DNA from: a virus
Taxonomy: Duplodnaviria > Caudoviricetes
IMG/VR virus record: IMGVR_UViG_3300044712_000786
Span: 32,001-96,000 of that record
Strand: one strand, 5' to 3'
Length of the DNA: 64,000 bases
This document shows positions 9,487 to 38,928 of the stretch, piece by piece. The position numbers and the translations under genes were made by a program. The notes under the pieces were generated by a model. That model had not been told where the DNA came from, did not search any database, and saw nothing but the letters and a program-made list of their open reading frames with translations. Positions within the stretch are counted from its first letter, which is position 1. The number at the start of each line of letters is the position of its first letter.

Positions 9487-10094
9487 TGAAAAACATTGTT
9501 TTAAATATTAACTCTATCAATGAAAGGGTAATTAAAAACGCCCCGAGTATGAAGGGTTTTATGAACAATGCGGCTAGAGCAAAGCTTGTATCTAGAAAAA
9601 ACGCGCTAATTAAAGCGTTTGACGCGCATTCAGTAACCCGAGAAATAGAAAAGGGACCAGATTCTACCTCTAATTCTAGTTCTACTTTAGGCGGAAAACC
9701 CAACTTATTCAGTTTTATTGGATTCGAAAGCGGGAGTAACCCCACATCGGAACTTAGGCAGTTCCTAATGAGTTATATTGATTTGTATAAAACTCCCCCT
9801 AAGATAAAGGGAAATAGTAGAGAAGTCTTCTTCGAATATCAAGTTAAAATCCCTAGCAAAGCTGAAATTGGCGCAGTTACGCCATTACCATTTAAAACAA
9901 GGTCTTCTAATAAAAGCTGGGCGCTTAGTATCGAAAGTGGCCTTTGGGGACTCTCCCATTACCTCTTTGGACTTTTTGCTTCTTCTCGTTCAGGCACGGG
10001 CTTAGAGTCTAAGTATAAAGTAAGGGATACCGAATTTGCCCCCGTTCCGTATTTGACTAAATTGTTATACGATTTTCAGGAATCATTATTTTAA
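9486..10094 (+). CDS. Putative tail-completion/neck protein
   Basis: Synteny; basic composition; WALSIESG motif. Confidence 0.4.
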   Translation: MKNIVLNINSINERVIKNAPSMKGFMNNAARAKLVSRKNALIKAFDAHSVTREIEKGPDSTSNSSSTLGGKPNLFSFIGFESGSNPTSELRQFLMSYIDLYKTPPKIKGNSREVFFEYQVKIPSKAEIGAVTPLPFKTRSSNKSWALSIESGLWGLSHYLFGLFASSRSGTGLESKYKVRDTEFAPVPYLTKLLYDFQESLF

Positions 10095-10942
10095 TGAAGG
10101 CGCAATATAAAAATAAGTTATTGTCGAGTTTTACGTTATGGTTTAACCATCAGTTACTATCTGAAGGGGAAGCTTTCAAAAATCATGGTTCGTATTTTTA
10201 TCCTACTAATCAGATTTTTAATGGATTCCATACATATGCCTGCCCTTTTAATCAATTGGTCTCTGATTCTTCTATAAGTGGGGCACAGGTTCCCACTGGG
10301 CTTTATGTTAATAATGTCTTTGTTACTTCTGGCGTAAGTGGTTTCCATGGAATAGATTACGAGAGAGGCAGAGCTTATTTTACCTCTCCTTTACCTAGCA
10401 CCGCTAAAGTTTCTGGCAACTACGCATATAAAGAAGTTAATGTTGTCTTAAGTAACGAGCCAGAAGAAAAATTATTGTTCGAAACTAAGTATTCCCCTCG
10501 TTCTCCCATAGGTAAGACACCAACTGGACTCTTCTCTAACGAACTTACGTATCCCGTTGTTTTTATTAAATATTTTAAAAATACAAATACCCCCTTTGCT
10601 TTAGGTGGAGACGATAACTCAACCAGTCAAATCTCAGCTATTGTTTTAGCTGATTCAGACTTTACTCTTGATGCTATTACTTCGATTTTCGAAGATAAGG
10701 CTAGGACTATAGTACCCCTATTTAGCCCTAACGAATATCCATATAACTATTATGGTGAACTTAGAAGCGGATTTAACTATACCGCAGCTTCCGAGAATAA
10801 AGATTATGCCTTTATAGATGACTCTAGCTCAACATATTTCAGCCCTAACTTCCAAAATAGGATAAGAGAAGTTAACCCTAATCTATTCTTAGGTGTAATA
10901 GATTTTGTTGTGACTAAAGTCCGTGCCCCTCGAACAGATTAA
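10094..10942 (+). CDS. Putative tail terminator protein
   Basis: Directly upstream of the tube gene; YPVVFI...QISAIVLAD pattern. Confidence 0.45.
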   Translation: MKAQYKNKLLSSFTLWFNHQLLSEGEAFKNHGSYFYPTNQIFNGFHTYACPFNQLVSDSSISGAQVPTGLYVNNVFVTSGVSGFHGIDYERGRAYFTSPLPSTAKVSGNYAYKEVNVVLSNEPEEKLLFETKYSPRSPIGKTPTGLFSNELTYPVVFIKYFKNTNTPFALGGDDNSTSQISAIVLADSDFTLDAITSIFEDKARTIVPLFSPNEYPYNYYGELRSGFNYTAASENKDYAFIDDSSSTYFSPNFQNRIREVNPNLFLGVIDFVVTKVRAPRTD

Positions 10943-10996
10943 TTTTCACAAAAAAACAAAAATAATGTAATACTCATTAACAATAGGATTTAAATT

Positions 10997-12121
10997 ATGG
11001 CAAGAAATCGTGTTATTTACCAGTCTGAAGGCGTGTTCGTTGGTCAAAAGACCCCTTGCACTGGCGACCACTACCCCGCAGATATCAAAGAAATTTATCG
11101 TGTACAAAGCGCGAACTACTCTTTCAACCTTAATAAGCGTGACGTTAACCAGTTTGGTGAACTAGCCGCTATTGATAGAGTCGTTCTCGACCCTCCCACT
11201 GTTTCCCTTGACGCTACTTATTTGCTCGCAAACGCTTATAATGAGAACGCTTTGGGAATGAACGTTGCCGTTGCTGGAACTGCTACTTGGAGCAATGCTC
11301 TAACTGGTATTCTTGGCGGCACCACTGACCAAAAATGTATTTGGGTGAAGACAGTTGCTTATGGCTCCGACCTTCATAACCTTAATACTACTGGCGCTTC
11401 AGTAACTCCTTTCGGCGTTATTGGCTTTGGTAATGGTTATTTAAGCTCATATTCTGTTGATGCTTCGGTTGGTGATTTTCCTCGCGCTAGCGTTCGTTTC
11501 GACGCATCAAACGTTAAGTTCGATAACTTTACTGGCGGTGGATTTACTAACTATGCAACCCAAGCTTTAGTAAGCCCCGCTATTTCGATTACGGACGGCA
11601 CGCTTATTAACTCTAAGTATTGGTTGCCTTCTGGTGTTTCGACTACCGACGCTACGGATAAGACTACTGTGTTACGTCCCGGTGACCTTGTGTTTGATTG
11701 GGCTAGCGCAACTGGCTTCATGGGAGCTAACCTTGCTGACGCTAAAATTCAGAGCTTCTCGATGTCTGCTGACGTTGCTAGAACCCCGCTGAATCGTCTT
11801 GGCACTAAGTTCCCATTCTCATACGAAATTAATTTCCCTATTAATGCTACGTTGAGAGTGTCGGCTAACGTTGGTGATATGAATACTGGCTCGCTTACTG
11901 CCCTAGTTAGCGATACTGGTAGCTTCGACCTGACCGTTAAGATTAATAAGCCGGGTACTACTACCGTTGCTTATGCTGCCGCTCTTAAGGGCGCTCAGCT
12001 TGACTCTCAGGAATATAGCTCGTCCATCGGTGATAACAAATCCGTTAACTGGAGCTTCTCGGTTCCTATCGGTGGCGTTAACGATGTTACTAAGGGCTTG
12101 TTCATCAGTGGTTTGCTGTAA
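10997..12121 (+). CDS. Major tail tube protein
   Basis: beta-rich S/T/G/A composition; precedes chaperones and tape measure; own late motif and terminator. Confidence 0.7.
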   Translation: MARNRVIYQSEGVFVGQKTPCTGDHYPADIKEIYRVQSANYSFNLNKRDVNQFGELAAIDRVVLDPPTVSLDATYLLANAYNENALGMNVAVAGTATWSNALTGILGGTTDQKCIWVKTVAYGSDLHNLNTTGASVTPFGVIGFGNGYLSSYSVDASVGDFPRASVRFDASNVKFDNFTGGGFTNYATQALVSPAISITDGTLINSKYWLPSGVSTTDATDKTTVLRPGDLVFDWASATGFMGANLADAKIQSFSMSADVARTPLNRLGTKFPFSYEINFPINATLRVSANVGDMNTGSLTALVSDTGSFDLTVKINKPGTTTVAYAAALKGAQLDSQEYSSSIGDNKSVNWSFSVPIGGVNDVTKGLFISGLL

Positions 12122-12142
12122 TTAATCTAAGTTAATCAAAAG

Positions 12143-12178
12143 TAAGCTCGATTTTCCAAAATCGGGCTTATTTTTTTC
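12143..12178 (+). terminator. Intrinsic terminator after tail tube gene
   Basis: AAGCTCGATTTT-CC-AAAATCGGGCTT followed by a T run. Confidence 0.7.
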
Positions 12179-12224
12179 CCCTTTATCTAAAACAGTGTAA
12201 ATCTGATTGGTAAAAGGTCTATCT

Positions 12225-12527
12225 ATGGATACGGATGAAACTCGTTTAAAGGAATACGCATTATTCCATATAAATCGAAAAGTTGTTAATCTCTACAAAC
12301 AATTACTATTTGTTTTAGAGGACGTTCGAGACGAAAAGTATAACATACAAGATGATAGAATCTATCAAATTACCAGAAAGCGAATATTAGATTTGGGGAA
12401 TGACACTATTAGAGAAATAGAAGAGCACTTTAAATTTTTAGAGCTAAATGTCAAAAATGAATATAGAGAATGTCATCAGACAAAGATTAAACCTTCAGAG
12501 CACGCAAAGGGCGCTGGAGGAATTTAA
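12225..12527 (+). CDS. Hypothetical protein (tail module)
   Basis: ORF; ATG downstream of a GTGTAAA motif at 12195. Confidence 0.5.
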   Translation: MDTDETRLKEYALFHINRKVVNLYKQLLFVLEDVRDEKYNIQDDRIYQITRKRILDLGNDTIREIEEHFKFLELNVKNEYRECHQTKIKPSEHAKGAGGI

Positions 12528-12672
12528 CGTTTCCCCTAAAATAGACTTTATAAAGTCGAGCACTTTCGCTATAATTTATAGAACATGGACCGTAGAAAAA
12601 CAGAAAAAGTTTTTAATCAAATTGGGCGGTCATGTTAATTTAAAAGAAACGGAATCATTTATAAACAGGTAA
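12448..12672 (+). CDS. Hypothetical protein
   Basis: ORF filling the gap in the tail operon. Confidence 0.4.
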   Translation: MSKMNIENVIRQRLNLQSTQRALEEFNVSPKIDFIKSSTFAIIYRTWTVEKQKKFLIKLGGHVNLKETESFINR

Positions 12673-12677
12673 AAGGC

Positions 12678-13424
12678 ATGAAAAAACTACATGAATTCAC
12701 AGTAAACAAAGAACAAGAAGTTGACGAAGCTATTGTTAGCAAAGACGAAAAGGGTCAGGAAATTACCACTATTACTAAGGTAAAGAAGCCCGTTCCCCAA
12801 AAGTTTTTCCTAGCTAAGCCAACTCGTTCCTTATATGACGAAGCGGACCTATTCTACGCCGTAAAGCTATCTGAAGGCATTAAGGCGGGGCTGCTAACTA
12901 AACCCCTGCTGGCTAAGCGTTATGCTAACGATGGCGGCTCCATGAGCGAACCAGAAAAGCAAACCTACGCTAACTTATATGTTAATCTGTTTGAAAAGCA
13001 GAGCGAATATCAGAAATTTATTTCCGAGAAGCCTGAGACAGAGCGCACGGCAGAAGATAAAGCTAAGATTAGCGAGATTCTTAAGGATTTAACTAATCTT
13101 CGTCAGCAAATTCAAGAATTTGAGCTATCTCAATCTAGTTTGTTCGACCAAACCGCCGAAAGCAGAGCTAGGAATAAGACTATCCTTTGGTGGGTTCTTT
13201 TCCTTTGTCACAAGGTAGAAGGGGATAAAGAGCTTCCCTATTTCGGTGAAGGGGACTATGACTCTAGGCTAGCTAAATATGACGAGATAGAAGAAATAGA
13301 AGACCAGTTCGTTACTGATACTGTGTCCAAGTTCCTTTACTACGTAAGTTTCTGGTATATGGGTAAAGCGTCCAATCCCGAAGATTTTGCCATGTTAGAT
13401 AAGCTCCAAGAAGAAAATAAATAG
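12678..13424 (+). CDS. Putative tail assembly chaperone
   Basis: Helical, acidic; between tube and tape measure. Confidence 0.5.
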   Translation: MKKLHEFTVNKEQEVDEAIVSKDEKGQEITTITKVKKPVPQKFFLAKPTRSLYDEADLFYAVKLSEGIKAGLLTKPLLAKRYANDGGSMSEPEKQTYANLYVNLFEKQSEYQKFISEKPETERTAEDKAKISEILKDLTNLRQQIQEFELSQSSLFDQTAESRARNKTILWWVLFLCHKVEGDKELPYFGEGDYDSRLAKYDEIEEIEDQFVTDTVSKFLYYVSFWYMGKASNPEDFAMLDKLQEENK

Positions 13425-13429
13425 TCCTA

Positions 13430-14434
13430 ATGTTCGATAAGTTTCAAGAAGTTAAATTAAAAATAGCTCTCTTTGAAATTATTCGGGGGTTTACAGTAAT
13501 TGACGTAGGTAGGCATAAGTCTATCTACGTCAAACACTTTACATTCATCGATACTGCCAGTATTGATTTAAAATATGCCGAAGCTTACAAATTCGCTATA
13601 GGTAAAGGCTTGCCCCTTATAGACGAACAGATAAAAACCGCTATTGGCAATAATACATGGACGGAAAAACAGGAAAAAAGATATTCGGAAATTCCCGCCG
13701 AAATCAATACTCTTAAACTAACTAAATCTAAGCTATTTTTAAAAAGGGAACTAGACTCTATTAACTCCGAAATAGAGACGCTGGAAAAAGAGCTTCTTCG
13801 CTTGGAGTATGAGCGTTCTGAGGTAGTAGGTTATACAGCGGAAATATTTGCTACTAAAAAAGCAAATGAACATGCTATTTATTACTCATTCAGGGGTAAG
13901 AACTTAGATACATTTTACTTCTCGGAAGAAGAATACGAAACCTTCTCCAACGAAGAAATTAGCAATCTTATCGTGGGACACGCAGGTTATGTAGCCAAAT
14001 TTACTCCGAAAGAAATGAAGCGTATAGCTATTTCTACGGCTTTCATGAATATGATATATCTAGCTGGAGAAGATATCATGTCATTCTTCGGGAAACCCGT
14101 CTTAGAGCTAACTAATAGACAGATGGAAGTCTATAATTTAGGGCGTTATTTCAAAAATCTAATGGCTGAATATAAGGGAACTATTACGGATGATTTACTA
14201 GCGGACCCAGATAAGTTTATCGAAGCGGCAGAAAATACCAAAACAGCCCAAAATTTCGCAGATAAATTAGATAATAAAGAATCTTCTGGAACAGCTATTG
14301 TAGGCGCTACTAAAGAAGATATCGAAAAACTAGGACTTACTAAAGAAGCTGGAACCATCAGTTTGGCAGACGAAGCCTCTAAAAAGGGCGGCAGCTTGAG
14401 TATGGAAGAGTTAATGAAACTCCACGGATATTAA
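13430..14434 (+). CDS. Putative tail assembly chaperone 2
   Basis: Coiled-coil-like; immediately before tape measure. Confidence 0.45.
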   Translation: MFDKFQEVKLKIALFEIIRGFTVIDVGRHKSIYVKHFTFIDTASIDLKYAEAYKFAIGKGLPLIDEQIKTAIGNNTWTEKQEKRYSEIPAEINTLKLTKSKLFLKRELDSINSEIETLEKELLRLEYERSEVVGYTAEIFATKKANEHAIYYSFRGKNLDTFYFSEEEYETFSNEEISNLIVGHAGYVAKFTPKEMKRIAISTAFMNMIYLAGEDIMSFFGKPVLELTNRQMEVYNLGRYFKNLMAEYKGTITDDLLADPDKFIEAAENTKTAQNFADKLDNKESSGTAIVGATKEDIEKLGLTKEAGTISLADEASKKGGSLSMEELMKLHGY

Positions 14435-14478: not shown

Positions 14479-17400
14479 ATGAACTTAGACGGAAAATTAG
14501 TAATTGGTGCGGACGTAACCCCAGCCCTTAATGAGATAGTAAGGATGGCGGGTAAGCTGCCCCCCTTCAAAATTAGAGTAGACACCCGAAATTTCCCATT
14601 AGGCTCAATGGCGAAATCGGCTGACCAGTTTGCTCAATCCATTCAGGCCGCTAATCAACGTGTGTTAGCTTTCGGAGCTTCGGCGGGAACCATTTACGCA
14701 ATAGAAAAAGCTTTTAGATTCCTAGTATCTTCTACTATCGAAGTAGAAAAGAGACTTACTGAAATCAATGTAATTTTGGGGGCTTCTAGCTCGAACTTAA
14801 AACAATTCAGTAATGAATTATTTAACATTGCCAAAACGACTGGTCAAAGCTTTGATGAAGTATCTAAAGCAGCCCTAGAATTCAGCCGTCAAGGTTTGGG
14901 AGTAACTGAAACTTTAAAAAGAACTCGTGACGCCCTTATCCTGACCCGTCAAACTGGTATTGATGTTGGCGAGGCGGTTAGCGCCATCACCGCTACTTTA
15001 AACAGTTTTACTAAAGCTGCTTATGATTCTACTACGGTAATTAATAAGTTAGCTAAAGTTGACCAAAACTTTGCTGTTAGTGCAGGCGACTTAGTCGAAG
15101 CTATTAAGCGCGTAGGTAGCTCCGCTGAAGACGCGGGAGTTTCCTTGGATGAACTTATCGCTATGGTAACCTCTGCTCAACAGATTACCGCTCGTGGAGG
15201 TTCTGTTATTGGTAACGCCTATAAGACTATCTTTACTAGGTTACAACGTCCTGAAGTATTGAACCAGTTAGAGGAAATTGGTGTAGCCGTTAGAGATAAC
15301 AGTAACGCTATTCTTCCCGCTATTAAAATACTGGAGAACTTCTCTAAGTCCTATGATAACCTTAATCAGTCTCAGAAATCCGCCGCTACTGAATTAGTCG
15401 GTAGCGTTTATCAGATTAACGTTTTAAAAGCTGGATTGAAAGACTTGGGGAGTAGCTATTCTTTCTACGAAAGAGCTTTAAATGACTCCGCTTCCGCTAC
15501 TGATGAAGCTATCCTTCGTAACGAGAAGATGAATAAGTCTATCGCTGCAATGGTGAACTCTACTAAGGAAAGTTGGAAACAACTTTCTGCTGATATTGGC
15601 GAGCAAGCTATTGGCCCAGCTATTAAAAGGGCTTTGGGGGCTTTTGATTTTGCTGCTGGTGGATTAAGCGAACTCTTTTCCAAAAACAAGGGCTCTGGAG
15701 AACAATCAGTTAATATTGGTAAAGACATCGGTCAAGGAATTCTAAAGGGACTTTCTCAATTTATAGAAGGACCGGGATTAGCTTTGGTTGGCTTAGTAAT
15801 GTTTCGCTTCGCTAAAACATTTACTAAATTTGCGATTGATTCTGCTAAAGTAGTTGGCGAACTTAATAAAAATATAGAAAATCGGGCTATCTTGGAAAGC
15901 GAAATTGCGACTGTTTTAGCTCAACAACCTAAAATCTACGAAAGACTTCTAAGCGGAGAGATTACCCGAGAACAAGCGGAAAGGGAAGTTCTTACTATTA
16001 TTAGAAATCAAAATGCCGCCTTAGATATCCAAAAGGGTATTATTACTAGCATGGGAACTTCTATTTCTACTCGTGGAGCAGCGGCAGTTACAAGAGATAA
16101 AAAGGTTGTTGTGGCTGCTTCTAGAGGATACATCCCAAACTTCGCAAACCCCGTTCTTACTGAAAGGGCGGGGGCTTACAAAGCTGGTTACGTGCCGGGA
16201 AAAGTTAAACTTTTCGAAAATAAAGTCATTAATGATGCGGAAAGAGTTATTCCTCCTTCTAATCTAAAAAATCTGGGCTCGACAGCTAATACTTCTGCCA
16301 TCGTCCCTCCTTTAGCTAGCCCCGCTGGACAGGTTTATAAAGCTGCTTTTAAGACTATGTCGGGAGTAGATTTAGCTACTGGACAAAAGGGTTTCATGTA
16401 TGGAAGAAATTACTTTCAACGCGAATGGATTAAAAGCACGGCTAAAAATAGAAAGCTGAGCGTTAATGACCCCGATGTTATTATGACTTTGGGGAAGGAA
16501 TTCGCGAATAAATATGGAACTAAACAGGGGTTCCTTGCTGTAAATAAAGGTTTTGTACCTAATTTCGCGCAGTACCAGTATCCTACCATTGCTGCTATAA
16601 GGAAGCAGCGTCCTCAATTAGGGGATATCTTGAAAAATGCTCCTACAGTTTGGGGGCAGGCTACTGGACAGAGATTCCTTAATCATGATTTGACAGGCGA
16701 TAAAATCCCCATCAGCTATAGAGATAATATTAACTTAGGGGATATGATGAATAACATCCTAGCGAAAGGTAAATTCAGGGCTAGTGAGGGATTCGTTCCT
16801 AGTTTCGCTTCCTTTAAAGAATATAAGGGTATCGGTCTAACCGCCAGAGTCCCCGATAGCGAAATCCTTGACCCCGAAGCTGCTTCAAAATTTGCTCAAA
16901 AACTTTCCTTAGATGGAAACGTATCTACTTTGCTGAAAGTTATTCGTAAAGTTGCACCTAAAAGCCCCGCGCTCGAAGATAATTCTTTGAAATTTGAAGT
17001 AAACTCGGGACTTAGATTTGGTAACGATTTTAAAGCTAGTGGCTTATATCAGTCTGATAATGATACAATATCTATATCCTCTTCTGCTAGAAGCCAGACC
17101 CTAGCTCATGAAATGGGGCATATGGTAGATATATCTTCATTCAGTGATTTTTATAAACAGTCGGGTTTTTCAAGAAAAAAACTTATCAACGCATTAAGAA
17201 GGGACCAAATAAAGTTTAAATCTCGACCTTATTTAATGACTGGAGCTTTTGACGGAGACATGGTTAGAGACATGCTAATGATGTATAGAAGCCCAGATAA
17301 AAGAAATAAGGAAGCTATTGCTGATATTTTTGCGGATTCTGGAAGGATATTCAATCCCAAAATGGAGGATTATAGTCATAAAAAGTATCTAACTACTGGT

Positions 17401-20400
17401 GAAGCGCCGAAAATGATTCGCAAAGGGATTAAGAAAATATTAGGATTAAAATCTAGCGGATTTATTCCTAACTTTGGACCCATCAAAGACCCCTATAAGG
17501 TAAATCCTATTTATCATGTACTAGAGACGATTAGAAAATCAAGTGGCAGCGATTATCAAAATAATTGGGGTGAGCCCATAAACTACGATGAGAGACAAGA
17601 AGAGAATAAAAGACTAATAGCTTCTGTAAAATCTATCGGTTTTGCAGGCTACGGAATCAAAAGTGATAATAAAGATTACCAAATTGGTTCTATGTTTGCC
17701 CCTTATGCTATAACTACTGGATATGAAGAAAAGGAGGTGGCTAAATACATCCCCATGGATAAACTGAAGGCGGCTGGGCTATCCGAAAGACGTATTTATA
17801 AAATGCTCTTTAAAGGAGATAGACTGAGTTCTCGTTTCCAGCAGTATAACGACCCCTTTTCTATCGAATCCTCTCAGGCAAAAATACGCAGAGCCAAAGA
17901 GGGTATCGCCGTTAAAAAAGCCTCTGGAAATACTATAAACCTAAATGCTGCAACATATCTAGCTAGCCGAATGAAGGAAAATAGTCAAGATAAGTGGGCT
18001 CAGCAAAACGCTATTAGCGAAGCTCTTAACACTATAGTTCCTTATCCAGAGCTACAATCTGAGAAACAGGAAGGAAAGGTAGTTAAACAATATCTTAGTT
18101 CAGGCGACAATAAATATAAGCGCGGTTCCCTTAAGGAAACCAAAGAAAAGCTTATGCAATATTTTGGAATCAAAGTAAACAAAACAGACGCCGCAGGAAT
18201 GTTATCTGAGAAACGTCTACTAAGAAGTTTAGGTTTGGCTTCTCGTGGAAGCCCAACTTTAGCAGAGGACAGGGGGCTAGAGCTTAATGACTATAAAAAT
18301 AATCAACAAAGACGTATAACGGTCTCTTCTAAAATAGGTCAATATAGAAAAGAGTTAGAAATAGCTTCTTTAGTTGATAATCCTATATCTCCCGCGATGT
18401 CTTTAGATGACTATAGGCGTTATATTTTAACGCACGGCGCTACTCCAACTACCCCATTTTCGAGGGTAATTACTCAGTTACAAAGGGCGTCTGCTAAGGA
18501 GGACAAGGGGGATAGAAAAACTAATCTAGAATATGCATTACGAAGTATAGCGGGGGGAAGTGTATCATCCACTGCCACAATTAGAAATTTGCCGCGCCTA
18601 AATAAAATATTTCCAGAATTGAAATTGACAAATAAAGAAATTATTAGAGCTTTCAAAAATTCCACTTATGGAAAAATATTCCGACCCGCAGAACAAAAAC
18701 CGTCTATTTTAGGTCAAACGATGGAGTCCCTTAAGGCATTTAAAGGCTTTAGGTCAACTCAAGCAAAGGCTAGATTAGGTAGAGGGGAAGTAAAAGGCGT
18801 TACTCAAGATATGTTCAATTCGGATATAACCCCTTATGCATCATTCTCTATTATTCAAAGGGAAACCCCTAAAAATATACAAGATATCTTATTTAATCTA
18901 GAAAAATCATTTGCCGACAGAGTCAGTCAATCCAAGCTGCTATTTAGAGGCTCTAGTATAATTGAGCCAATGCTAGTTAATCTATTAGGTTCATTTACTT
19001 CTCTAGGAGGTAGGACAGACGAAAAAAGAATAAGGTCTTATCTTACTTCTTCTATTGTAAAATCCGCTAGTTACGGACTTAGCTCTCCGATAGGGGATAA
19101 AAAAGGCGTAGTAAGCATTTATTCTCGACCAATATTGGAAAATTTAGGACTGCTTCAATCTGGTTTAGTTCCTAGTAATGAACAAGCTAATTCTGTTGTT
19201 GCAGAAAGGCTACATAGAAAAGCTTTAATGGGGGTATTAAATCTAGAGAATGGCAGACTGCTTAAGCCAAAAGACTTCATGTCTTCAGTAAGAGATATAG
19301 AAATACCAGAAGAACTGATTCAATTTAATAGGGGACTAAACGAGTTAGCTTCTGGCTCTATTATAAATCGAGCAAGTCCTAAAATAACCTCCACTCCGAT
19401 GGGCGGGGTTATGAACCTATATCGAAAAGTAGAAACAAGTGGAATGACGCCAAGACAAAAAGATTTTAGAGGGCCTAAAACACCGCTGCCTTTCGAAGAT
19501 ATAAAGGGCTGGGATAGCGAGCGAATGGTTAAATACCTACGAAGTTCTCTAGGTGATACTGAAAGGGGAGTAGCTCCATTTGGTTCAGAACATTCTTCTT
19601 ATTTCGATTTAAGATACATGTCTTTTACTGATAGGAAGATGAGAAAAGATATTGCAGAAGGTAGAGTTAGTCTTCAAGATTACTCTTCTATTATTTTCCA
19701 AAGAAAAGTTCCCGTTCAGGAACTTGTAACCCCAGAAAACTTGGGCGATATAATGACTTCTGGGGAAGCTACTAAAAAGAAAATATTTGATAGGGGCGTG
19801 TTTTTTGACCTTCCTCGGTTTAGAGATAAGTTCGGAATTAGTGAACATACTTCAGAACGCGAATATCCATTTTTAACAACTGCTCCCGCTGGAAAAGTAT
19901 CTAACTTCGGTAAAATTTTCGGGCTTTCGAGAAGTAAGGGATATGTTCCTAATTTTGCCTATATTCCCGGCATAAGTCAATTAGCTGGAAGACTACTTAC
20001 TAATATAACTCATACCGAAAGCTATGGGTTAAAAGAAAGAATGGATTCCATCAAACAATTAAAACTTAAAGACTATATTGGGGCTCTGGTAAAAGATATA
20101 CCTACCCCCGCTGCATCCCCTAAAGGAGAGGTATGGAATACTTACGATAGGGATATCCTATTCCGTTCGGTCTTTAAATTGCCACATAGAGTTCTAATGC
20201 CCGAAAATCAAGACTTTCTTAAGTCTAGAAAATTAGTTAAAACTTCTGATAGTACATATAGGTTGACTAACAAAGGACGCATACTAAGTAATGCTTTACA
20301 AAGTCTATCTCAAGGCAAGTATGCTCCACAACCTAATAACCCCAACGAGCTTTATATTCTAGGCCAAAATAAAACTATGGGGGGTTTTGACTTTACGATT

Positions 20401-23400
20401 AACAAAGACCAAAATAAGGTCGGCTATCATGACCTTTGGGATTTCGCCAAAAACCCTTGGGAAAAATTCGATTTCAAAGGCGCGCTAAGTTTTGCTGGCC
20501 AATATGCTAAAAGCGTAGTTAAGAATCGTTCTTTTGGAATGACTGACGAATTAAGGTCTCACCCCTTTGTAGCGGAAGATAACTCGATGTATCGCCAAAG
20601 CCCAGCTTCTATGTTGGCTAGAATGGCAATTAGTCCGTTTGCTAGACCTGTTCGAGTTCAAGACTCTTTCTCCCCTCTAAGTAAAGAGAAAGTAGAAAGA
20701 CTGCAAAAACTCAAGTCCTCTTCTTCATATGGAAGCAAGAGACATAAAGTTTATAATCAAGCTCTAACAGATGATAGCCTAGTAAAGCAACTGCTAGAAC
20801 TAGCAAAAAATCCCCCTCCTTCTGTAGGCATAATGAATAAAGGCTTTGTTCCTAATTTCGTTCTACCCAACAAGGGTTTCTTGGGCTCTCCATTCCCGTT
20901 TGAAGACTTCAGAAAGCTTAAAACGCTTGAAGAGCAATATAAGTTCATTAAAAGCGAGTTTCCTAAAGTGGGGCTAGCTAACCATCCTATTGGCGAGGGC
21001 TCTTCTCGCGCCGTTTATGGTATCGGCGGTAATATGGTATTAAAAATGGTTAAAGATACCAAGCATATTATCGATGGATATAAAAGCCACCCTCTAAACG
21101 AAGCTATTAGACAGAAAGTTTTACTAAAAGGATTTGCTCAAAATCAAACAGAGGGAAGTCAAATGTTTGCTGGCTTCCGAGACATTGTTCCTTATAACTA
21201 TGAAGTAGACGATAGATTCAAATACATCATAGCCGAAAGAGCAGCGGCAATGACCCAAGCAAATGCGGTTAAATTCGGTTATCCATCTGTTTCCGATGCT
21301 CTATATGAGCCCCGCTTCCGTAGGAGACTTACTTCTCTTTATAAAACGGGAGTAATTCCAGATGAAGGTTCTAAAAACTTTGGATTTATAAGGAGAGGGG
21401 GAGAAAATAGACCCGCGTTAATCGACTATGGATTAGACACTCAAACAGCTAAAAATCTATATGGTTTTACTGGGCAGGATTTTATTTCTAAGGGTTTAAT
21501 CCCGAATTTTGCTATAGAGTTTAAGGATAGAAAGCGCATCTATAAGACAGGCTTTGGTGGAGATACAGAGTTTCTAGAAAAGGTTCTATCTAAAATTAGC
21601 CCCGATACATCCTTACTGCAAGCTACTATTCATGGTAGTAGAGACGAATTATTGCAGCGAGTTACCCCAGCGGAATTAGAAGAAATTCTCGCGCTTAAGA
21701 ATATACCTATTAATAAAGACACTATTGCTCATATTAATATAGTAAAAACCCGTTTCGGTAATCTTCCTCATACCTTTGGTATTCAGCAGAAACTTTCTGG
21801 AAGCACGGCCCCCCTTGTGGTTGTTCCTTCGTTCCCAGACCCAGTAATTAACGCTGAAACTGGATTAGGCACTAAAGAAGGTAGGGGAACACTTATTAAT
21901 ACTATCCTAACGAGAAATCCTCGCGGAGAAGGAATAGTTCGCCCATCAGTAGATAGATTTGGACAGATAATGAAGATTCTCCAAGATAAATGGGGTAATA
22001 CTACAGAAGTTATTGGACTAGAAAGAGCTAGGCAGATGTTCGGCCTAAACGCAAAAAGGAAGGCTAGTGGATTCATTCCTAACTTTGCTGACCCGCTTAA
22101 ACTTGCTATAGCTCGCGAAATAGCCGCTGGTGTTCCAGCTAGCTTAATTAAAGTAGAAAATCACGCAAGTCTTAAGAGCGCAAATAATCCATTGGGATTA
22201 GCGGTTACCAATAAAAGAGACGAGCCCAACGGAGTATCCCAAGGTATTTCCCGCGCTATACGCGAGGGAGCTAACCCTAAAACTTATGGTAGCGGTAGGG
22301 TTCCCAACTTTGCTGACCAACCCCGAATTCTAACTGGCTTAAAGGGAATTTTACAGTCTAATCCCGCAACCGATGCTAACTTCAATCAGGGAGTTAGAGA
22401 CGAAATACTAGAAAAAGCTAAGACCCTAGTATTAAAAATGAAAGATAGTCAGGTTCCTATTGGGGAACTCGGGGTTCAAGCAGATAAGGCAGTTAAACAG
22501 TTTACCAAAATGGTAGCTGGTTTGACTAAGTCTCAGGAAATGATTGACTCATTTTCTAAGTCAATTAGTTATTGGAAGAGAGAAAATCAGAAGAACCGCC
22601 CTTCTACTCCGCTGAAGAATCAAGCGGATATTGGGGCTGGATTAGCTGCCCAAAATGCTTTAGAAGCCGAACTTCAAGCAAAAAGACAAGCTCAAGAAGA
22701 AAGAACTCAAAAGAGAAGATTAGATGCTCAAAGTTTCAAAGAAAAGACAATTACATCTACAGTAGGGCGCATTAATCAAGGCGAATTTATTCCTAATATA
22801 AGAAAGCCTATTTTGGCAGATGAAAGAGTAAGCGGAGCCCTGAAAAATCAAGCGATTTCCGTTGTCTCTGATGGAGGATTTGTATTAAGTGGGGATAGGA
22901 AGAAATACTATGACTGGTTAGCGAAGAACGATAAACAAGCCTTCAGGGGCGCTAAACAAATGAGAAACGCTAATCTCCAAAACAGAGCCTTTGGAGTAAG
23001 TTTCGGGGCTTCTATGGTTGGTGGACTAGCTAGCCAATTTATTGGTGACGCTACTCAAGAAAGAAGAGGATATAGTAAAGCTGTCGAAGGTGGGGCTAAC
23101 ACTCTAGCTATGGGAGCATTAGGCTTTCAGGTAGCTGGGCCAGCAGGAGCATTAGCTTTGGGTGCTGTATCGGGATGGGGTGCTGTTACGGATACTATTA
23201 AAGCCTTTAATGACACTCTTCCTGATTTACAAAAGAATCTGGAAGCTGTAACCGAAAGGTCTACAAGGACTTCAGACGCATTTAGTAAGTTCATACAGAC
23301 TAGCGAACAAATCAATAGTATTTTACTAAGTCCTAAACCGGGAGCAGCTAGAGAGTTACAACGCTTACGCACTCAACAATCTTCGGCGCTCGCAGATATT

Positions 23401-26400
23401 CCAGATAGAGACTCATTTGGTAAGTCTGCACGACAAGACCTATTAGACGCATTTAAAACTGGCGACGTAAACAAACAAATCGAAATCTCCGAAAGAGTAG
23501 CTAAGAGAATAGGAACAGAGAAAACCGCTGCCGAATTAGAAACTGGCTTTGCCGAATATCTTGACAAAAATAAGAAGATAAACAGCGAGGGATTTAGCCG
23601 AATTGACAGCTTTGAAAGGACTCTAAGGAGTTCTGTTAATAAGCAGGGATTAACCTTTGACCAATTCTTAGCTACTAATCCCGGCTCCTTAGACTATATT
23701 AAAAGCTCTGGAAGCGCCGAACAAATGGATTCTCGCCTAAGGGAATTAATTAATAAATTCGACCCTAGCTTTAATACTTCGTTTTCTGGAGCATTAAATA
23801 AACTATTTACAGAAGAAGGACCGCTTAAGCAGAACGCATATAAGAGAGTATTTAGCGGAGCTACTAACGAACAATTGGATAGCGAGCGAAAAGCCCTTGA
23901 ATTAATGAATAGAAATCAAGTAGAAAGCGCTAAATATATCGAATCCTTCGGTAATCAAGTTTTCTTAACTAAGGAAAAATTCCGCTCATTTACTGATGAT
24001 ATCGTCGCCTCGATGGAGAGGTTTAATGCTAATCTGCAAGCCGCAAATGAAAGAATAGATATATTCGGTAAGGGTCTAATTGATTTAAATGAACCTTCCT
24101 TGCGCCCCGAGGGACAACTAAATATTAGTCAGGGATTTAGAGATATACAGACAAAAGCGCAAGCCCAATCTCAATTTTCTCTAATTCAGAAACAGTTTGA
24201 ATCTGCTATGAGCGCTGCCCTAACTAAGGCGGAAACCCAAAGGTTCGACGCATTTGAAAAGTTAATGGGCGAAAAAGCTGGTGTTCTAAGTGGCGCTCAA
24301 CAAGTATCTAACGCCGCTTATACCAACGTTCTTTCTGGCGGTGACTTACTACAAAAACTAAACAATATTAATAATAGGACCGAAGTAACGGGTGGATTAT
24401 CTGAGATTAACAAAATTAATCAAGAATCTATCAGAAACACTTTAGAGGAATTTAACAAGATTGCCCGAGAAAAAGATAGCTCTATTACTGCTTTAATAGA
24501 TACTACCGCTAATAAGTTAGCCGCTCTTGATTTAACCAAGACTTTGGAAACTAGCCGCCTTAACTTGAATCAAAAGTTGAATTACGGGGGCGGGTTATCC
24601 GAAATACTAAATGGTAATATCAAAGCCCAGATGGTTCAGCTAGGAACCTCCGCTAATGTAGCTAATACTCTTAGAAACAGCACTGCTCCCGGTGAAGTAG
24701 CTTATCAAAGGGCTGAAATTCTTAAGAAATTCAACGTAGAAGTTCCCGAAAGCCTTAGGAAAGAACTATTTACAGAAAGTAAAAAGAATTTAACTCAAGC
24801 TGGTTTTTCGATTCCCGATGAGGTAATTCAAAAACAAATAGATTCTACATTCCCTAAATCTGACCCAGAGCGAGAAGCTAAAATAATTAAAGCTATGGAG
24901 GAAATGGCTAAACTAAGCCTCGCTGCTGTAAATGAAGAGTCATTAATCAAGCAAACCGAGCTAAGTATTGCTACTCAAACCCAGATTAACACTAAGAATA
25001 TATCTGATGGAATAGCACAAATATTAAAAGATGGATTGAAGGTAAGCGAATCTAAGAACACTAAAGATAGTCCCGCTCCTAGCTCATTTGAAATGCCAAT
25101 GTCTTGGGACATGCCTGCTAATCCGATGCTAAAGTATGATATTGGCTCAGTTTCTAAATCTATTAAATCTAAGGAAGAAGAATTTAAGAAAATAGAAGAT
25201 AATCCTGTAATGACTGTAATGCAGCGCGAAGGATGGTCTCCGTTTGCCGAAGCTAAACCTAAAAAACTTTATACTTTTTCTGATTTAAGGGAGATGGAAA
25301 GACTACAGGGAGAAATTGATAAAGATAAAACGACTCTTGCTAAAATCAAATTAGACGCCGCCAGAAATCAAATCTCTATTCCGTTTGGAATGTCACAAGA
25401 CTGGGAAGATAGCAAACCTAGCAAAATTACCCCTAATATAGGAACAACGAAAGCTAACTTAGGTTATTACGGAGGGATGGCTTATGATTTACCGATGCCG
25501 ATGACCCCTTCTCTGCCAGTCTATAATAACAAGAATATTATTACTCTAGCGGAAATTAAAGCTAAACAAATTAACGCAGCTAACGAAAAGAACTTCGGGG
25601 ATGTTATAAGGGAAGGACCGTTGCCTATTTCAACTACGGACCCAACTGCTCGACCACAAGCTAAAAATACTAGATACGCGGCAGAATTAAGACAGAGAAT
25701 AGAATTAGACGCCGCTACTAAAGATTATATAGCTAGCACGAAAGAATTAACAGAAGCTATGTATGGTGCCGTTGGAGGTTTTACTACCTTTAATGATACC
25801 ATTATCTCTACTCAAAAAACTCTAATTGACTTTGCGGGGTCAGTAAAAGAAGGTTTCCATGACTTAATTGGCTTAGCTATAAGAGGAACGGGCGATATTG
25901 AGGAAAGATTCCGCGAAATGTTCGAGGAAATACTTAATAAAGCCGCAACAAATATGGCTTCTAGCGGACTTGACTTTGTATTTAGCCAAGTTACTAAGGG
26001 TATTGGAGTTGAAAGCCTATTCAAGAATAAGGGCGGTTATATTCCTCGATTCTCTGAGGGTGGAGTAGTAAGAGGGGGTTCGGGAACTAAAGACGATGTT
26101 CTAGCTCAGCTTAGCGGCGGCGAATACGTTATCAATAGGTCCGCTGCTGAAAAAATTGGTTATAAAAACCTAGAAGCAATTAATAAAGGAGGTTCTTCGG
26201 GCGGTCCTTCTAACTGGGACGCTTTTGGGGCTGCTGGTGGAGCCGATTCATTTATTAATCAGCGCTCTAGCGGGATTACCGCTCATTTACAGAATGCTTA
26301 TCGATATAATGACCCTCGTCAGCCAACTGCTGGAGAGGTTGTAGTTGACCCTAGGTTGTCTATCCAAGCTCTAACTGACATGGATAATCCTCAAAGCAGG

Positions 26401-27213
26401 ATTAGAATGGAAAGGGAAGAGAATCTATTAAACTACATAACAGATAAACAAGATTTTCAAAAAGCCCAAGACAAGGCTCAGAAACAGTATAAGGAAGGTC
26501 TATGGTGGAGCTTTGGAACATCTTTAGCTGGCGCTGCTGGCAATACTTGGGCAGCGGGAGCTAAACCTAATACTTTAGGTGGCAAAGACTTTAAGGGAGC
26601 TTATGATACCTCTACTTCGGCTGAAGGCGCTGATTGGTCTAATCCCGGCTTTGAATACGAAAGATTCCAGTGGGATAGTAGTGTATCTCGCAGACCCCTA
26701 ACCCGTAATTCGGGAGGTTCTATCAATTCTAAGACAGCTTTATTAACTGGGGGCGAATATGTTATGTCGCCTGCTACTGTAAGCCGCCTAGGGGTGTCTA
26801 GAATGAATACCTTGAACGCTGGACACGTTCCCACTTTCGCTCTAGGAGGGCTTATGGGCTCTTCTAACGCTGGAAGCTCTCCAGACTCACTTAAGGAGTC
26901 TATAGACAAGCTAGTAGCCGTTTCCCAAGAGATACGGGGCACCCTAGAGGGTAAGGATACTAAAACGGGTAATAAAGATTCGGCACCCGCTATATCCAAT
27001 AACGTTAATATAACTATTTCTGTTACTCAGACTGGAAAAGTCAACTCAGACACTCAAGTTTCGTCTGGTGCAGGGGCTTCCGAGAAGGAAGACAAGAATA
27101 AGAAGCAGGACGAATACAAGAAACTTGGTATGATGATTGAAAACAAGGTCTTGGAAGTTATTGTTCAGGAGCAGAGACCGGGGGGTCTGCTTTATGATTC
27201 CGAATCTCGTTAA
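14479..27213 (+). CDS. Giant tape measure protein (4244 aa) with internal enzyme-like cassettes
   Basis: N-terminal TMP core (LKQFSNELFNIAKTTGQSFDEV...NKLAKVDQNFAVSAGDL...GNAYKTIFTRL); helical distal region; C-terminal GGYIPRFSEGG...LSGGEYVIN module present twice; position after chaperones. Confidence 0.9.
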   Translation: MNLDGKLVIGADVTPALNEIVRMAGKLPPFKIRVDTRNFPLGSMAKSADQFAQSIQAANQRVLAFGASAGTIYAIEKAFRFLVSSTIEVEKRLTEINVILGASSSNLKQFSNELFNIAKTTGQSFDEVSKAALEFSRQGLGVTETLKRTRDALILTRQTGIDVGEAVSAITATLNSFTKAAYDSTTVINKLAKVDQNFAVSAGDLVEAIKRVGSSAEDAGVSLDELIAMVTSAQQITARGGSVIGNAYKTIFTRLQRPEVLNQLEEIGVAVRDNSNAILPAIKILENFSKSYDNLNQSQKSAATELVGSVYQINVLKAGLKDLGSSYSFYERALNDSASATDEAILRNEKMNKSIAAMVNSTKESWKQLSADIGEQAIGPAIKRALGAFDFAAGGLSELFSKNKGSGEQSVNIGKDIGQGILKGLSQFIEGPGLALVGLVMFRFAKTFTKFAIDSAKVVGELNKNIENRAILESEIATVLAQQPKIYERLLSGEITREQAEREVLTIIRNQNAALDIQKGIITSMGTSISTRGAAAVTRDKKVVVAASRGYIPNFANPVLTERAGAYKAGYVPGKVKLFENKVINDAERVIPPSNLKNLGSTANTSAIVPPLASPAGQVYKAAFKTMSGVDLATGQKGFMYGRNYFQREWIKSTAKNRKLSVNDPDVIMTLGKEFANKYGTKQGFLAVNKGFVPNFAQYQYPTIAAIRKQRPQLGDILKNAPTVWGQATGQRFLNHDLTGDKIPISYRDNINLGDMMNNILAKGKFRASEGFVPSFASFKEYKGIGLTARVPDSEILDPEAASKFAQKLSLDGNVSTLLKVIRKVAPKSPALEDNSLKFEVNSGLRFGNDFKASGLYQSDNDTISISSSARSQTLAHEMGHMVDISSFSDFYKQSGFSRKKLINALRRDQIKFKSRPYLMTGAFDGDMVRDMLMMYRSPDKRNKEAIADIFADSGRIFNPKMEDYSHKKYLTTGEAPKMIRKGIKKILGLKSSGFIPNFGPIKDPYKVNPIYHVLETIRKSSGSDYQNNWGEPINYDERQEENKRLIASVKSIGFAGYGIKSDNKDYQIGSMFAPYAITTGYEEKEVAKYIPMDKLKAAGLSERRIYKMLFKGDRLSSRFQQYNDPFSIESSQAKIRRAKEGIAVKKASGNTINLNAATYLASRMKENSQDKWAQQNAISEALNTIVPYPELQSEKQEGKVVKQYLSSGDNKYKRGSLKETKEKLMQYFGIKVNKTDAAGMLSEKRLLRSLGLASRGSPTLAEDRGLELNDYKNNQQRRITVSSKIGQYRKELEIASLVDNPISPAMSLDDYRRYILTHGATPTTPFSRVITQLQRASAKEDKGDRKTNLEYALRSIAGGSVSSTATIRNLPRLNKIFPELKLTNKEIIRAFKNSTYGKIFRPAEQKPSILGQTMESLKAFKGFRSTQAKARLGRGEVKGVTQDMFNSDITPYASFSIIQRETPKNIQDILFNLEKSFADRVSQSKLLFRGSSIIEPMLVNLLGSFTSLGGRTDEKRIRSYLTSSIVKSASYGLSSPIGDKKGVVSIYSRPILENLGLLQSGLVPSNEQANSVVAERLHRKALMGVLNLENGRLLKPKDFMSSVRDIEIPEELIQFNRGLNELASGSIINRASPKITSTPMGGVMNLYRKVETSGMTPRQKDFRGPKTPLPFEDIKGWDSERMVKYLRSSLGDTERGVAPFGSEHSSYFDLRYMSFTDRKMRKDIAEGRVSLQDYSSIIFQRKVPVQELVTPENLGDIMTSGEATKKKIFDRGVFFDLPRFRDKFGISEHTSEREYPFLTTAPAGKVSNFGKIFGLSRSKGYVPNFAYIPGISQLAGRLLTNITHTESYGLKERMDSIKQLKLKDYIGALVKDIPTPAASPKGEVWNTYDRDILFRSVFKLPHRVLMPENQDFLKSRKLVKTSDSTYRLTNKGRILSNALQSLSQGKYAPQPNNPNELYILGQNKTMGGFDFTINKDQNKVGYHDLWDFAKNPWEKFDFKGALSFAGQYAKSVVKNRSFGMTDELRSHPFVAEDNSMYRQSPASMLARMAISPFARPVRVQDSFSPLSKEKVERLQKLKSSSSYGSKRHKVYNQALTDDSLVKQLLELAKNPPPSVGIMNKGFVPNFVLPNKGFLGSPFPFEDFRKLKTLEEQYKFIKSEFPKVGLANHPIGEGSSRAVYGIGGNMVLKMVKDTKHIIDGYKSHPLNEAIRQKVLLKGFAQNQTEGSQMFAGFRDIVPYNYEVDDRFKYIIAERAAAMTQANAVKFGYPSVSDALYEPRFRRRLTSLYKTGVIPDEGSKNFGFIRRGGENRPALIDYGLDTQTAKNLYGFTGQDFISKGLIPNFAIEFKDRKRIYKTGFGGDTEFLEKVLSKISPDTSLLQATIHGSRDELLQRVTPAELEEILALKNIPINKDTIAHINIVKTRFGNLPHTFGIQQKLSGSTAPLVVVPSFPDPVINAETGLGTKEGRGTLINTILTRNPRGEGIVRPSVDRFGQIMKILQDKWGNTTEVIGLERARQMFGLNAKRKASGFIPNFADPLKLAIAREIAAGVPASLIKVENHASLKSANNPLGLAVTNKRDEPNGVSQGISRAIREGANPKTYGSGRVPNFADQPRILTGLKGILQSNPATDANFNQGVRDEILEKAKTLVLKMKDSQVPIGELGVQADKAVKQFTKMVAGLTKSQEMIDSFSKSISYWKRENQKNRPSTPLKNQADIGAGLAAQNALEAELQAKRQAQEERTQKRRLDAQSFKEKTITSTVGRINQGEFIPNIRKPILADERVSGALKNQAISVVSDGGFVLSGDRKKYYDWLAKNDKQAFRGAKQMRNANLQNRAFGVSFGASMVGGLASQFIGDATQERRGYSKAVEGGANTLAMGALGFQVAGPAGALALGAVSGWGAVTDTIKAFNDTLPDLQKNLEAVTERSTRTSDAFSKFIQTSEQINSILLSPKPGAARELQRLRTQQSSALADIPDRDSFGKSARQDLLDAFKTGDVNKQIEISERVAKRIGTEKTAAELETGFAEYLDKNKKINSEGFSRIDSFERTLRSSVNKQGLTFDQFLATNPGSLDYIKSSGSAEQMDSRLRELINKFDPSFNTSFSGALNKLFTEEGPLKQNAYKRVFSGATNEQLDSERKALELMNRNQVESAKYIESFGNQVFLTKEKFRSFTDDIVASMERFNANLQAANERIDIFGKGLIDLNEPSLRPEGQLNISQGFRDIQTKAQAQSQFSLIQKQFESAMSAALTKAETQRFDAFEKLMGEKAGVLSGAQQVSNAAYTNVLSGGDLLQKLNNINNRTEVTGGLSEINKINQESIRNTLEEFNKIAREKDSSITALIDTTANKLAALDLTKTLETSRLNLNQKLNYGGGLSEILNGNIKAQMVQLGTSANVANTLRNSTAPGEVAYQRAEILKKFNVEVPESLRKELFTESKKNLTQAGFSIPDEVIQKQIDSTFPKSDPEREAKIIKAMEEMAKLSLAAVNEESLIKQTELSIATQTQINTKNISDGIAQILKDGLKVSESKNTKDSPAPSSFEMPMSWDMPANPMLKYDIGSVSKSIKSKEEEFKKIEDNPVMTVMQREGWSPFAEAKPKKLYTFSDLREMERLQGEIDKDKTTLAKIKLDAARNQISIPFGMSQDWEDSKPSKITPNIGTTKANLGYYGGMAYDLPMPMTPSLPVYNNKNIITLAEIKAKQINAANEKNFGDVIREGPLPISTTDPTARPQAKNTRYAAELRQRIELDAATKDYIASTKELTEAMYGAVGGFTTFNDTIISTQKTLIDFAGSVKEGFHDLIGLAIRGTGDIEERFREMFEEILNKAATNMASSGLDFVFSQVTKGIGVESLFKNKGGYIPRFSEGGVVRGGSGTKDDVLAQLSGGEYVINRSAAEKIGYKNLEAINKGGSSGGPSNWDAFGAAGGADSFINQRSSGITAHLQNAYRYNDPRQPTAGEVVVDPRLSIQALTDMDNPQSRIRMEREENLLNYITDKQDFQKAQDKAQKQYKEGLWWSFGTSLAGAAGNTWAAGAKPNTLGGKDFKGAYDTSTSAEGADWSNPGFEYERFQWDSSVSRRPLTRNSGGSINSKTALLTGGEYVMSPATVSRLGVSRMNTLNAGHVPTFALGGLMGSSNAGSSPDSLKESIDKLVAVSQEIRGTLEGKDTKTGNKDSAPAISNNVNITISVTQTGKVNSDTQVSSGAGASEKEDKNKKQDEYKKLGMMIENKVLEVIVQEQRPGGLLYDSESR
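16126..22314 (+). repeat. Nine copies of peptide motif G[FYLR][IV]P[NS]F[AGV] inside the TMP
   Basis: Motif starts at nt 16126, 16549, 16789, 17458, 19939, 20842, 21493, 22069, 22294; looser copies near 22783, 26035 and 26821. Confidence 0.9.
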
Positions 27214-38416: not shown

Positions 38417-38419
38417 AGG

Positions 38420-38839: not shown

Positions 38840-38928
38840 AACTGTTAGATTATGTTACACTTAAAGGGATGTTTCTAGAAAATCTTTATTTTTTTTATAG
38901 CCCACTTAACTACTGTAATTAAAATAGG

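Follow-up and report, generated by a model that had tools for sequence, protein, structure and literature searches.

The 64,000-nucleotide stretch of DNA analyzed here, referred to as the window, covers positions 32,001 to 96,000 of the IMG/VR virus record IMGVR_UViG_3300044712_000786 (Duplodnaviria; Caudoviricetes), a complete phage record of 202,704 bp with direct terminal repeats. Our study identified a cassette of 210 residues with a minimal protein-kinase-like domain (aa 2129-2338; 20863..21492, + strand) in the middle of a giant tape measure protein (TMP) encoded in this window. By its sequence and its structural model, the cassette is assigned to the protein-kinase-like fold superfamily, with the Gly-rich loop, K61, E97, D167, N172 and D188 all present. 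We lean, with some reserve, towards the reading that this cassette is a minimal kinase-like phosphotransferase that was captured into the cargo zone of the TMP and that would be delivered to phosphorylate host proteins before the phage expresses its own genes.

The cassette is delimited by two short joints that were detected in our motif scan, G-F-V-P-N-F-V upstream (aa 2122-2128; 20842..20862, +) and G-L-I-P-N-F-A downstream (aa 2339-2345; 21493..21513, +), which are joints 6 and 7 of the protein (P0001); a second TMP, P0004, has G-L-I-P-N-F at the spot equivalent to the downstream joint. The initial annotation had placed a protein-kinase-like TMP cassette at 20863-21492, and these limits hold: they match exactly the segment that joints 6 and 7 enclose, residues 2129-2338. 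Cassette residue 1 corresponds to protein residue 2129 and to nucleotide 20863, and this numbering is used below. The Gly-rich loop spans I43-Y52, starting at nt 20989, and its core G-E-G-S-S-R (G44-R49; 20992..21009, +) is aligned by the family profile to its counterpart in SteC, an effector kinase of Salmonella. The predicted ATP-anchoring beta3 lysine is K61 (aa 2189; 21043..21045, +), in model strand 58-63, and the helix-C motif Q-N-x-x-E, here Q-N-Q-T-E (Q93-E97; 21139..21153, +), ends model helix 78-97. After the hinge (Y121-R126), the catalytic loop D167-E-G-S-K-N172-F-G174 (21361..21384, +; Asn172 at nt 21376) falls between model helix 150-160 and strand 173-178, and the D-Y-G motif that is the DFG equivalent (D188-G190, in L-I-D-Y-G; 21424..21432, +) comes directly after model strand 181-186. 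All of these motifs lie in the frame of the open reading frame 14479..27213 (+), in the order and at the positions that the initial annotation had proposed. It is also important to consider possible errors of assembly. In each of two separate Logan assemblies (from runs X1 and X2), a single contig carries the cassette together with both joints, free of differences; since either run bears a flag as a possible source of the record, their support is not fully independent. Because two assemblies carry the cassette and both joints unbroken, a chimeric join is unlikely.

The search for homologues placed the cassette in a sizeable family of phage proteins. A phmmer search with the 210-aa cassette against a library of 1.84 billion representatives found eight independent homologues (best E 1e-9), and a profile of these homologues added 107 further clusters of stand-alone size and 17 longer proteins with one to four copies of the domain, several of which carry two to four copies in tandem. 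This makes a family of about 125 phage clusters, none of them with a Pfam domain or a meaningful name, with one member bearing the automatic JGI label 'Bud32'. A profile made from the 107 non-TMP copies matches the window cassette with an E of 3.3e-13 (Z = 1.84e9). The sole PHROG match is phrog_4301 ('unknown function'), with an E of 6e-5 to 9e-5 for the cassette and with matches to 14/14 seed members (best E 6.4e-18). These sequence matches assign the cassette to a phage-restricted and so far nameless family, phrog_4301. Its members are usually free-standing genes or two to four tandem copies in large phage genomes, and the stand-alone members have about 200-230 aa; since they are as short as the cassette, the domain is autonomous and not completed by the next cassette. 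As a separate observation, the proteins P0005, P0006 and P0117-P0122 (in L003 and other loci) have two to four tandem domain copies, all of which keep Lys61 and Asp188, and lie among small early-type genes on phage contigs of 150-200 kb.

Conservation was counted in an alignment of 109 domain copies (alignment A2). Five residues, G46, R49, K61, D188 and G190, are present in 109/109 copies, and S47, S48, A63, G90, Q93, N94, E97, an aromatic residue at 121, D167 and G174 are conserved in at least 90% of them. In the Gly loop, S47 is found in 101 copies, S48 in 100 and G44 in 92; in helix C, the counts are 108 for Q93, 107 for N94 and 108 for E97. Position 167 is D in 103 copies and E in 6, G174 occurs in 105/109 copies, and the Y189 of D-Y-G in 80/109. 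The window copy retains every invariant residue and all the columns conserved in at least 90% of copies, plus Asn172, and the motif residues singled out in the initial annotation turned out to be invariant or near-invariant columns of this alignment. The family's Gly loop reads G-x-G-S-S-R, and its invariant Arg (R49, 109/109) may contact phosphates or substrate. In sub-threshold profile alignments to canonical kinases, D167 corresponds to the HRD Asp, position 172 to the Asn, and D188 to the DFG Asp.

General domain libraries were mostly silent about this family. A Pfam scan of the whole TMP, the cassette and 14 family members gave no kinase model at E <= 10, only spurious weak matches such as SASP (E 0.003), and NCBIfam gave nothing significant, the Bud32 models reaching an E of 0.11-0.13 in one member. 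With the lone cassette, phmmer against the PDB found chance-level matches (the best one an endolysin, E 0.24), tblastn against 50,697 phage records found no match, and neither did a single-cassette pattern search of IMG/VR. The annotation presented here, built on sequence conservation and a predicted structure, is the first structural and catalytic one for a family that databases list as hypothetical.

The structural model agrees with the motifs. An AlphaFold2 model of the cassette, built with a 14-sequence alignment, reached a pLDDT of 86.3 and a pTM of 0.82, with values below 50 for the first 5 and last 4 residues, which adjoin the joints. Its N-terminal half consists of two N-terminal helices, two strands with the Gly loop and K61, and a long helix ending in Q-N-x-x-E; in the second half, two strands run to the hinge Glu and are followed by helices D and E, the catalytic loop D167...N172, strands beta7 and beta8, the D-Y-G motif and a short helix. 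Foldseek against the PDB returned 28 matches with E <= 1e-3, nearly all of them kinase-like, a SAICAR synthase being the one exception among the matches listed; they include Bud32, COQ8A, NleH1, PINK1, Rio1/2, OspG and APH(2''), with E values from 2e-4. In the VIA re-alignment, PRPK had a Z of 8.8 (156-162 residues aligned, rmsd 4.0-4.4) and RIOK3 a Z of 8.7, and in an exhaustive VIA scan of 48,161 chains, which is independent of Foldseek, the best 50 rows were 50/50 kinase-like (Z 6.8-8.1), with pseudokinases such as ULK4 and IRAK3 among the matches. These VIA Z values alone are middling. Among AFDB clusters, the matches were small proteins, unnamed or called 'Ser/Thr kinase' (E 3e-8, TM up to 0.74 by hit); among BFVD models, they were uncharacterized jumbo-phage proteins, for example from Klebsiella phage RaK2 and Pectobacterium phage CBB (E 2e-11 to 2e-5); and the Atlas shape search gave viral hypotheticals (TM 0.71), followed by Pkinase, YrbL and RIO1. 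As the match lists are uniform and agree with the catalytic columns, we consider the assignment to the kinase-like fold secure. The earlier proposal of such a fold is thus confirmed by the bilobal order of elements in the model, by Foldseek, by VIA and by all 50 of the best rows of the exhaustive scan, and the Gly loop, beta3 Lys, helix-C Glu, catalytic Asp/Asn and DFG-type Asp are found in the expected secondary-structure elements.

The carrier of the cassette is identified as a TMP through its Pfam and PHROG matches. The reading frame that encodes it (P0001, 4244 aa; 14479..27213, +) is the sole long open frame in this part of the window; PhageMin_Tail from Pfam matches aa 118-305 (E 6e-29), PHROG TMP families match with a best E of 7e-49, and the TMP domain comprises the N-terminal 400 residues. 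Tail-fibre-like genes lie upstream of it, head and terminase genes lie downstream on the opposite strand, and a syntenic tail module with a TMP is found in the related locus L001. A hydrophobic segment at aa 424-453 (15748..15837, +; peak of 1.39 in a 19-residue Kyte-Doolittle window) precedes the cassette zone, and hydrophobic Gly/Ala-rich segments at aa 2837-2903 (22987..23187, +; Kyte-Doolittle peaks of 1.31-1.48) lie beyond it, so that the cargo bay is bracketed by hydrophobic segments. On these sequence features, namely the N-terminal domain, the tail-gene neighborhood and the hydrophobic Gly/Ala-rich segments, P0001 has what is characteristic of the TMP class, and its location inside the virion is predicted.

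The kinase-like cassette is one of several in this protein. A scan with the motif G-x-[IV]-P-[NST]-F-[AVG] found ten irregularly spaced joints, at aa 550, 691, 771, 994, 1821, 2122, 2339, 2531, 2606 and 4115; the first nine cut the cassette or cargo zone (aa 550-2612; 16126..22314, +; six-residue form G-x-[IV]-P-[NST]-F), and the tenth, a related motif (26821-26841, +), lies beyond it. Like joints delimit cassettes in P0004 (G-L-I-P-N-[YF]) and in a relative of 5469 aa, which has 15 of them. When these three TMPs are compared, P0001 has 2182 non-cassette residues and a cassette zone of about 2060 aa; P0004 (L001, 10001-18502), with 2833 aa in total, has 2112 and about 720 aa; and the 5469-aa TMP of the relative G001 (L020, 241-16650) has 2222 and about 3250 aa. 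The cassette zones thus vary 4.5-fold, with mostly different cassettes, and the flanks are near-constant. As the length of the zone varies while the flanks stay constant, we regard the kinase as a variable and exchangeable passenger of a cargo bay, and it is probably only the constant flanks that measure the tail.

The distribution of the kinase cassette among TMPs is narrow. G001, a genome of 209 kb, is the nearest relative, with a TMP N-terminus that is 64% identical by tblastn (50% by BLASTP over residues 16-697), and hmmsearch with the family profile over its full 5469-aa TMP found no kinase cassette. The family profile had no match in five related virus records, this relative among them. 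A word-index search of giant proteins of 2334-7427 aa returned the domain only in the query, P0004 having surfaced by the exhaustive phmmer search; in the library of 1.84 billion representatives, P0004 is the only other TMP with the domain. There, the kinase cassette sits between G-L-I-P-N-[YF] joints, directly after a recognized ART-PolyVal cassette. In a maximum-likelihood tree of the 109 copies, the copies of P0001 and P0004 are sisters (support 100/97), nested among stand-alone phage proteins on branches of 0.75 and 1.44, and both have the identical catalytic-loop spacing P-D-x-x-x-x-N-x-G. This sister position, the nesting and the long branches indicate a single capture followed by long retention.

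As for the other cassettes of P0001, a language-model search with the neighboring ones (aa 1828-2121 and 2346-2530) gave no usable match, and Pfam on all the cassettes other than the kinase gave faint matches only (DUF6782, E 0.06, aa 778-993; HTH_45, E 0.002, aa 1828-2121). The cassette at aa 778-993 (16810-17457) has an H-E-M-G-H motif besides its faint match to DUF6782, a putative metallopeptidase, and is a candidate for a joint-processing protease. The joints themselves could be processing sites, and self-cleavage at Asn-Phe, as in some capsid proteins, is a conjecture. The region aa 1464-1820 (18868-19938) is 26% identical to aa 2551-2933 of the L020 TMP; an ADP-ribosyltransferase label for it is unconfirmed, as Pfam does not recognize the domain here.

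The course of events that we propose begins with a stand-alone family gene, which would have been captured once into the TMP cargo zone between two G-x-[IV]-P-N-F joints. The TMP would then be built into the tail with its cargo non-globular or extended, and at infection it would be ejected by way of the tail tip before the DNA. This would bring the kinase cassette to the cytoplasmic side, whether cut loose at the joints or still attached to the TMP; candidates for cutting the joints are the H-E-M-G-H cassette and Asn-based self-cleavage. Once there, the kinase would use host ATP to phosphorylate host proteins before phage gene expression, disarming defences in the manner of the T7 kinase. In phage lambda, the TMP is the one phage protein that was labelled during DNA injection by a biotin ligase fused to ManZ, in the inner membrane, and therefore TMP segments can reach the cytoplasmic face (PMC13190303). 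By a rough calculation, the full-length protein (4244 aa) would as a trimer take up about 40% of the volume of a 330-nm tube with a 4-nm bore; at this degree of filling the cargo could fit, though only in an unfolded or elongated state, and refolding would have to follow once it has been ejected. By analogy, a tail-borne kinase that acts ahead of phage transcription is plausible. A broader proposal, in which the long-tailed jumbo phages of this lineage have in the TMP middle an exchangeable cargo bay, marked off by G-x-[IV]-P-N-F joints, that injects changing sets of ready-made enzymes, with the kinase as a broad pre-transcriptional weapon against defences equivalent to the T7 kinase, is possible in our view, and we put it forward only tentatively.

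It is important to note that several points weigh against a delivered protein kinase. The C-lobe is truncated: the chain ends 22 residues past D188, with one short helix (193-200), and alphaF-alphaI are absent. The best reviewed matches among Swiss-Prot models are Bud32 and UbiB, and proteins of the Bud32, RIO and UbiB types act largely as ATPases. The metal-binding Asn position is variable in the family, being H in 44, N in 31, S in 24 and Q in 8 of the 109 copies, with Asn in the window copy, and phosphotransfer for every family member is a prediction. The survival of the cassette zone through tail assembly is an assumption; three copies of a 24-kDa domain, if folded, should be too large for the lumen of a tail tube, which is about 4 nm wide; and a look-up of sequencing runs attests the phage solely in rhizosphere metagenomes. 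Studies of effector kinases add that a SteC construct cut just past the DFG-like motif is inactive and that OspG needs a host partner (PMC13395416). Since alphaF-alphaI are lacking and these precedents exist, the cassette alone may be weak or may need an activator, and assays on the isolated cassette could give false negatives. The Bud32, RIO and UbiB matches, together with the absent alphaF-alphaI, qualify the term 'protein kinase', which is our leading reading and not the sole one.

These points also bear on other explanations. The cassette might still be TMP cargo and an active enzyme that uses nucleotides, yet be something other than a protein kinase, either an ATPase or switch of the Bud32, RIO or UbiB type or a kinase of small molecules, lipids or envelope precursors of the APH or Kdo kinase type. 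Its top reviewed structural matches (Bud32 and UbiB) and the PDB matches to Rio1/2, COQ8A and APH(2'') fit such an enzyme, as does the missing C-lobe platform for substrates in the model; the invariant R49 of the Gly loop also fits, as to our knowledge an invariant Arg in this loop is not a feature of canonical protein kinases. However, the only significant sequence link is to SteC, which is a protein kinase, as are the minimal matches NleH1 and OspG, and the fold alone cannot discriminate between these activities. We judge this alternative unlikely, while taking it seriously. A loss of catalysis, which would leave a folded binding or spacer module that serves as decoy or adaptor, would be in line with the truncated C-lobe and with the presence of ULK4 and IRAK3 among the structural matches. 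In contrast, the 109 copies show no variation at Lys61, Asp188 and Gly190 and very little at Glu97 and Asp167, and both of the diverged TMP copies keep all five residues; because such conservation of catalytic residues is typical of active enzymes, a pseudokinase is quite improbable. A chance resemblance of motifs in a non-globular part of the TMP might be suspected from the lack of Pfam and NCBIfam matches, but homologues that are significant at database scale, a confident model and uniformly kinase-like structural matches exclude it for practical purposes.

A different objection accepts the enzyme and doubts its journey. The cassette zone might never reach a new host, being cut out at the joints during assembly, to act late in the cell that makes the phage or be discarded, or becoming stuck in the ATP-less periplasm or at the tail tip. 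The near-constant non-cassette length of 2112-2222 aa fits a tail that is measured by the flanks only, the joints resemble processing sites and the cassette at aa 778-993 offers a possible protease (H-E-M-G-H; DUF6782, E 0.06), and folded cargo is sterically problematic in a tube. On the other hand, fusing at least eight enzyme-like cassettes into a virion protein would have little point if they served only the producer cell, where free genes would do, as they do for most family members, and by the estimate given above the whole trimer would fill only part of the tube. We consider non-delivery rather improbable.

If the reading of a delivered kinase is correct, a kinase that is ready-made on arrival would close a window of vulnerability that T7 leaves, as T7 must first transcribe and translate its kinase. 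The broader proposal of a cargo bay would also mean a new route of effector delivery, unfolded through the tail lumen, and a first function for a widespread and nameless family of phage kinases. The finding points to TMPs as modular effector carriers, and a cargo zone of variable length next to a constant ruler part is relevant to the way in which the TMP determines the length of the tail and to the amount of protein that a tail can inject.

Among the other genes of the window, most of those that adjoin the TMP in the tail module (8571-14434) have no counterpart in Pfam or PHROG. A large terminase (weak match), an ERCC4-type nuclease, a sigma-70 region-2-like protein, PhoH and DUF932 are encoded at 33858-39947 and 54735-55709 on the - strand. 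The window also encodes a stand-alone protein with ArdC-N and MPTase-PolyVal domains (45176-46021, -; E 2e-23 and 4e-28), a typical anti-restriction module of polyvalent proteins that is a free gene in this phage.

Special attention was given to the place of the cassette among known kinases. Canonical eukaryote-like kinases (Pfam Pkinase) gave no family-model match, and their full C-lobe, with the activation segment, the APE motif and alphaF-alphaI, is absent here. The best structural matches are Bud32/PRPK, RIO and UbiB/COQ8 proteins, which are small (about 200-250 aa; Bud32 with a Foldseek E of 2e-4 to 4e-6); they differ from the cassette in that no significant sequence match links them to it, and in that theirs is a cellular housekeeping role with partner proteins, a context absent here. 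A parallel in setting is Kinase-PolyVal (PF18762), a kinase domain devoid of the C-lobe that occurs in the polyvalent proteins of phages and plasmids, virion proteins among them (Iyer et al. 2017, PMC5512222). In both cases, the C-terminal subdomain is lost while the ATP-binding and phosphotransfer residues are kept, and the domain shares with many other effector domains a giant protein that presumably enters the host with the DNA. In Kinase-PolyVal, however, the conserved His and Asp of the phosphotransfer loop are split by an insert, and a conserved Gln lies in the last N-lobe strand (PMC5512222); compared with this description, the family studied here has no conserved His before D167 (Gly in 70/109 copies) and no conserved Gln in strand 121-125. 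In hmmscan, PF18762 was matched neither by the cassette nor by the TMP as a whole nor by any of 14 family members, it was only the 27th language-model neighbor of the cassette, and a six-frame search of the 202.7-kb genome with it gave 0 matches, a result that is weak alone because no positive control rang. The carrier differs too, being a TMP here, whereas 'tape measure' has 0 occurrences in PMC5512222.

By sequence, the cassette is nearest to effector kinases of the SteC type. The SteC N-lobe is the only significant PDB sequence match of the family profile (E 1e-4 with alignment A1 and 6e-3 with A2), spanning the Gly loop, the beta3 Lys and the start of helix C, and the solved SteC chain is itself the N-lobe alone; SteC clusters are also the nearest language-model neighbors of the cassette (0.95). 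SteC, NleH and OspG are likewise minimal kinases in which the C-lobe is depleted, and they enter their target cell as finished enzymes, as the cassette would. SteC, a Salmonella SPI-2 effector, has HD and DGD motifs and needs two further C-lobe helices for activity (PMC13395416), whereas the phage family has G-D...[HNS]-W-G and D-Y-G and ends sooner, and its route would be a phage tail instead of a type III secretion system, with a bacterial target. The T7 gp0.7 kinase (T7K), a phage-encoded kinase of the Ser/Thr type that acts at the very start of infection, serves as the functional model; recent work showed that it disarms many bacterial defences at once, retron and DarTG among them, through promiscuous phosphorylation (PMC13645617). 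Unlike the cassette, which is fused into a late structural protein, T7K is the product of an early gene and is synthesized after entry. In the T7K family, DPV replaces DFG, and the Autographiviridae members have a shut-off domain (PMC13645617); homology to T7K was rejected, as the cassette has D-Y-G and not DPV and phrog_4301 is its sole PHROG match. Since PF18762 is unmatched, the Kinase-PolyVal His was not seen and the T7K motif differs, we treat the cassette, from its sequence relationships, as a separate and nameless branch of the kinase-like superfamily, nearest to the SteC-type effector kinases.

With respect to the carrier, T5 Pb2 and mycobacteriophage TMPs hold embedded muralytic domains, and TMPs therefore tolerate enzymatic motifs. 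The TMP enzymes known so far target the cell wall; they work outside the cytoplasm and do not depend on ATP, whereas a kinase must reach the cytoplasm. The ADP-ribosyltransferase Alt of T4 rides in the head and not in the tail. As a pre-made enzyme delivered by the virion, Alt is also a parallel (PMC9503650). We found no description of a TMP-embedded kinase in the literature that was searched, the coverage of which is incomplete. The overall kind of protein, a virion-borne polyvalent effector protein, is already known; what is new here is the TMP as its carrier, the kinase family to which the cassette belongs, and the evidence for a variable cargo bay.

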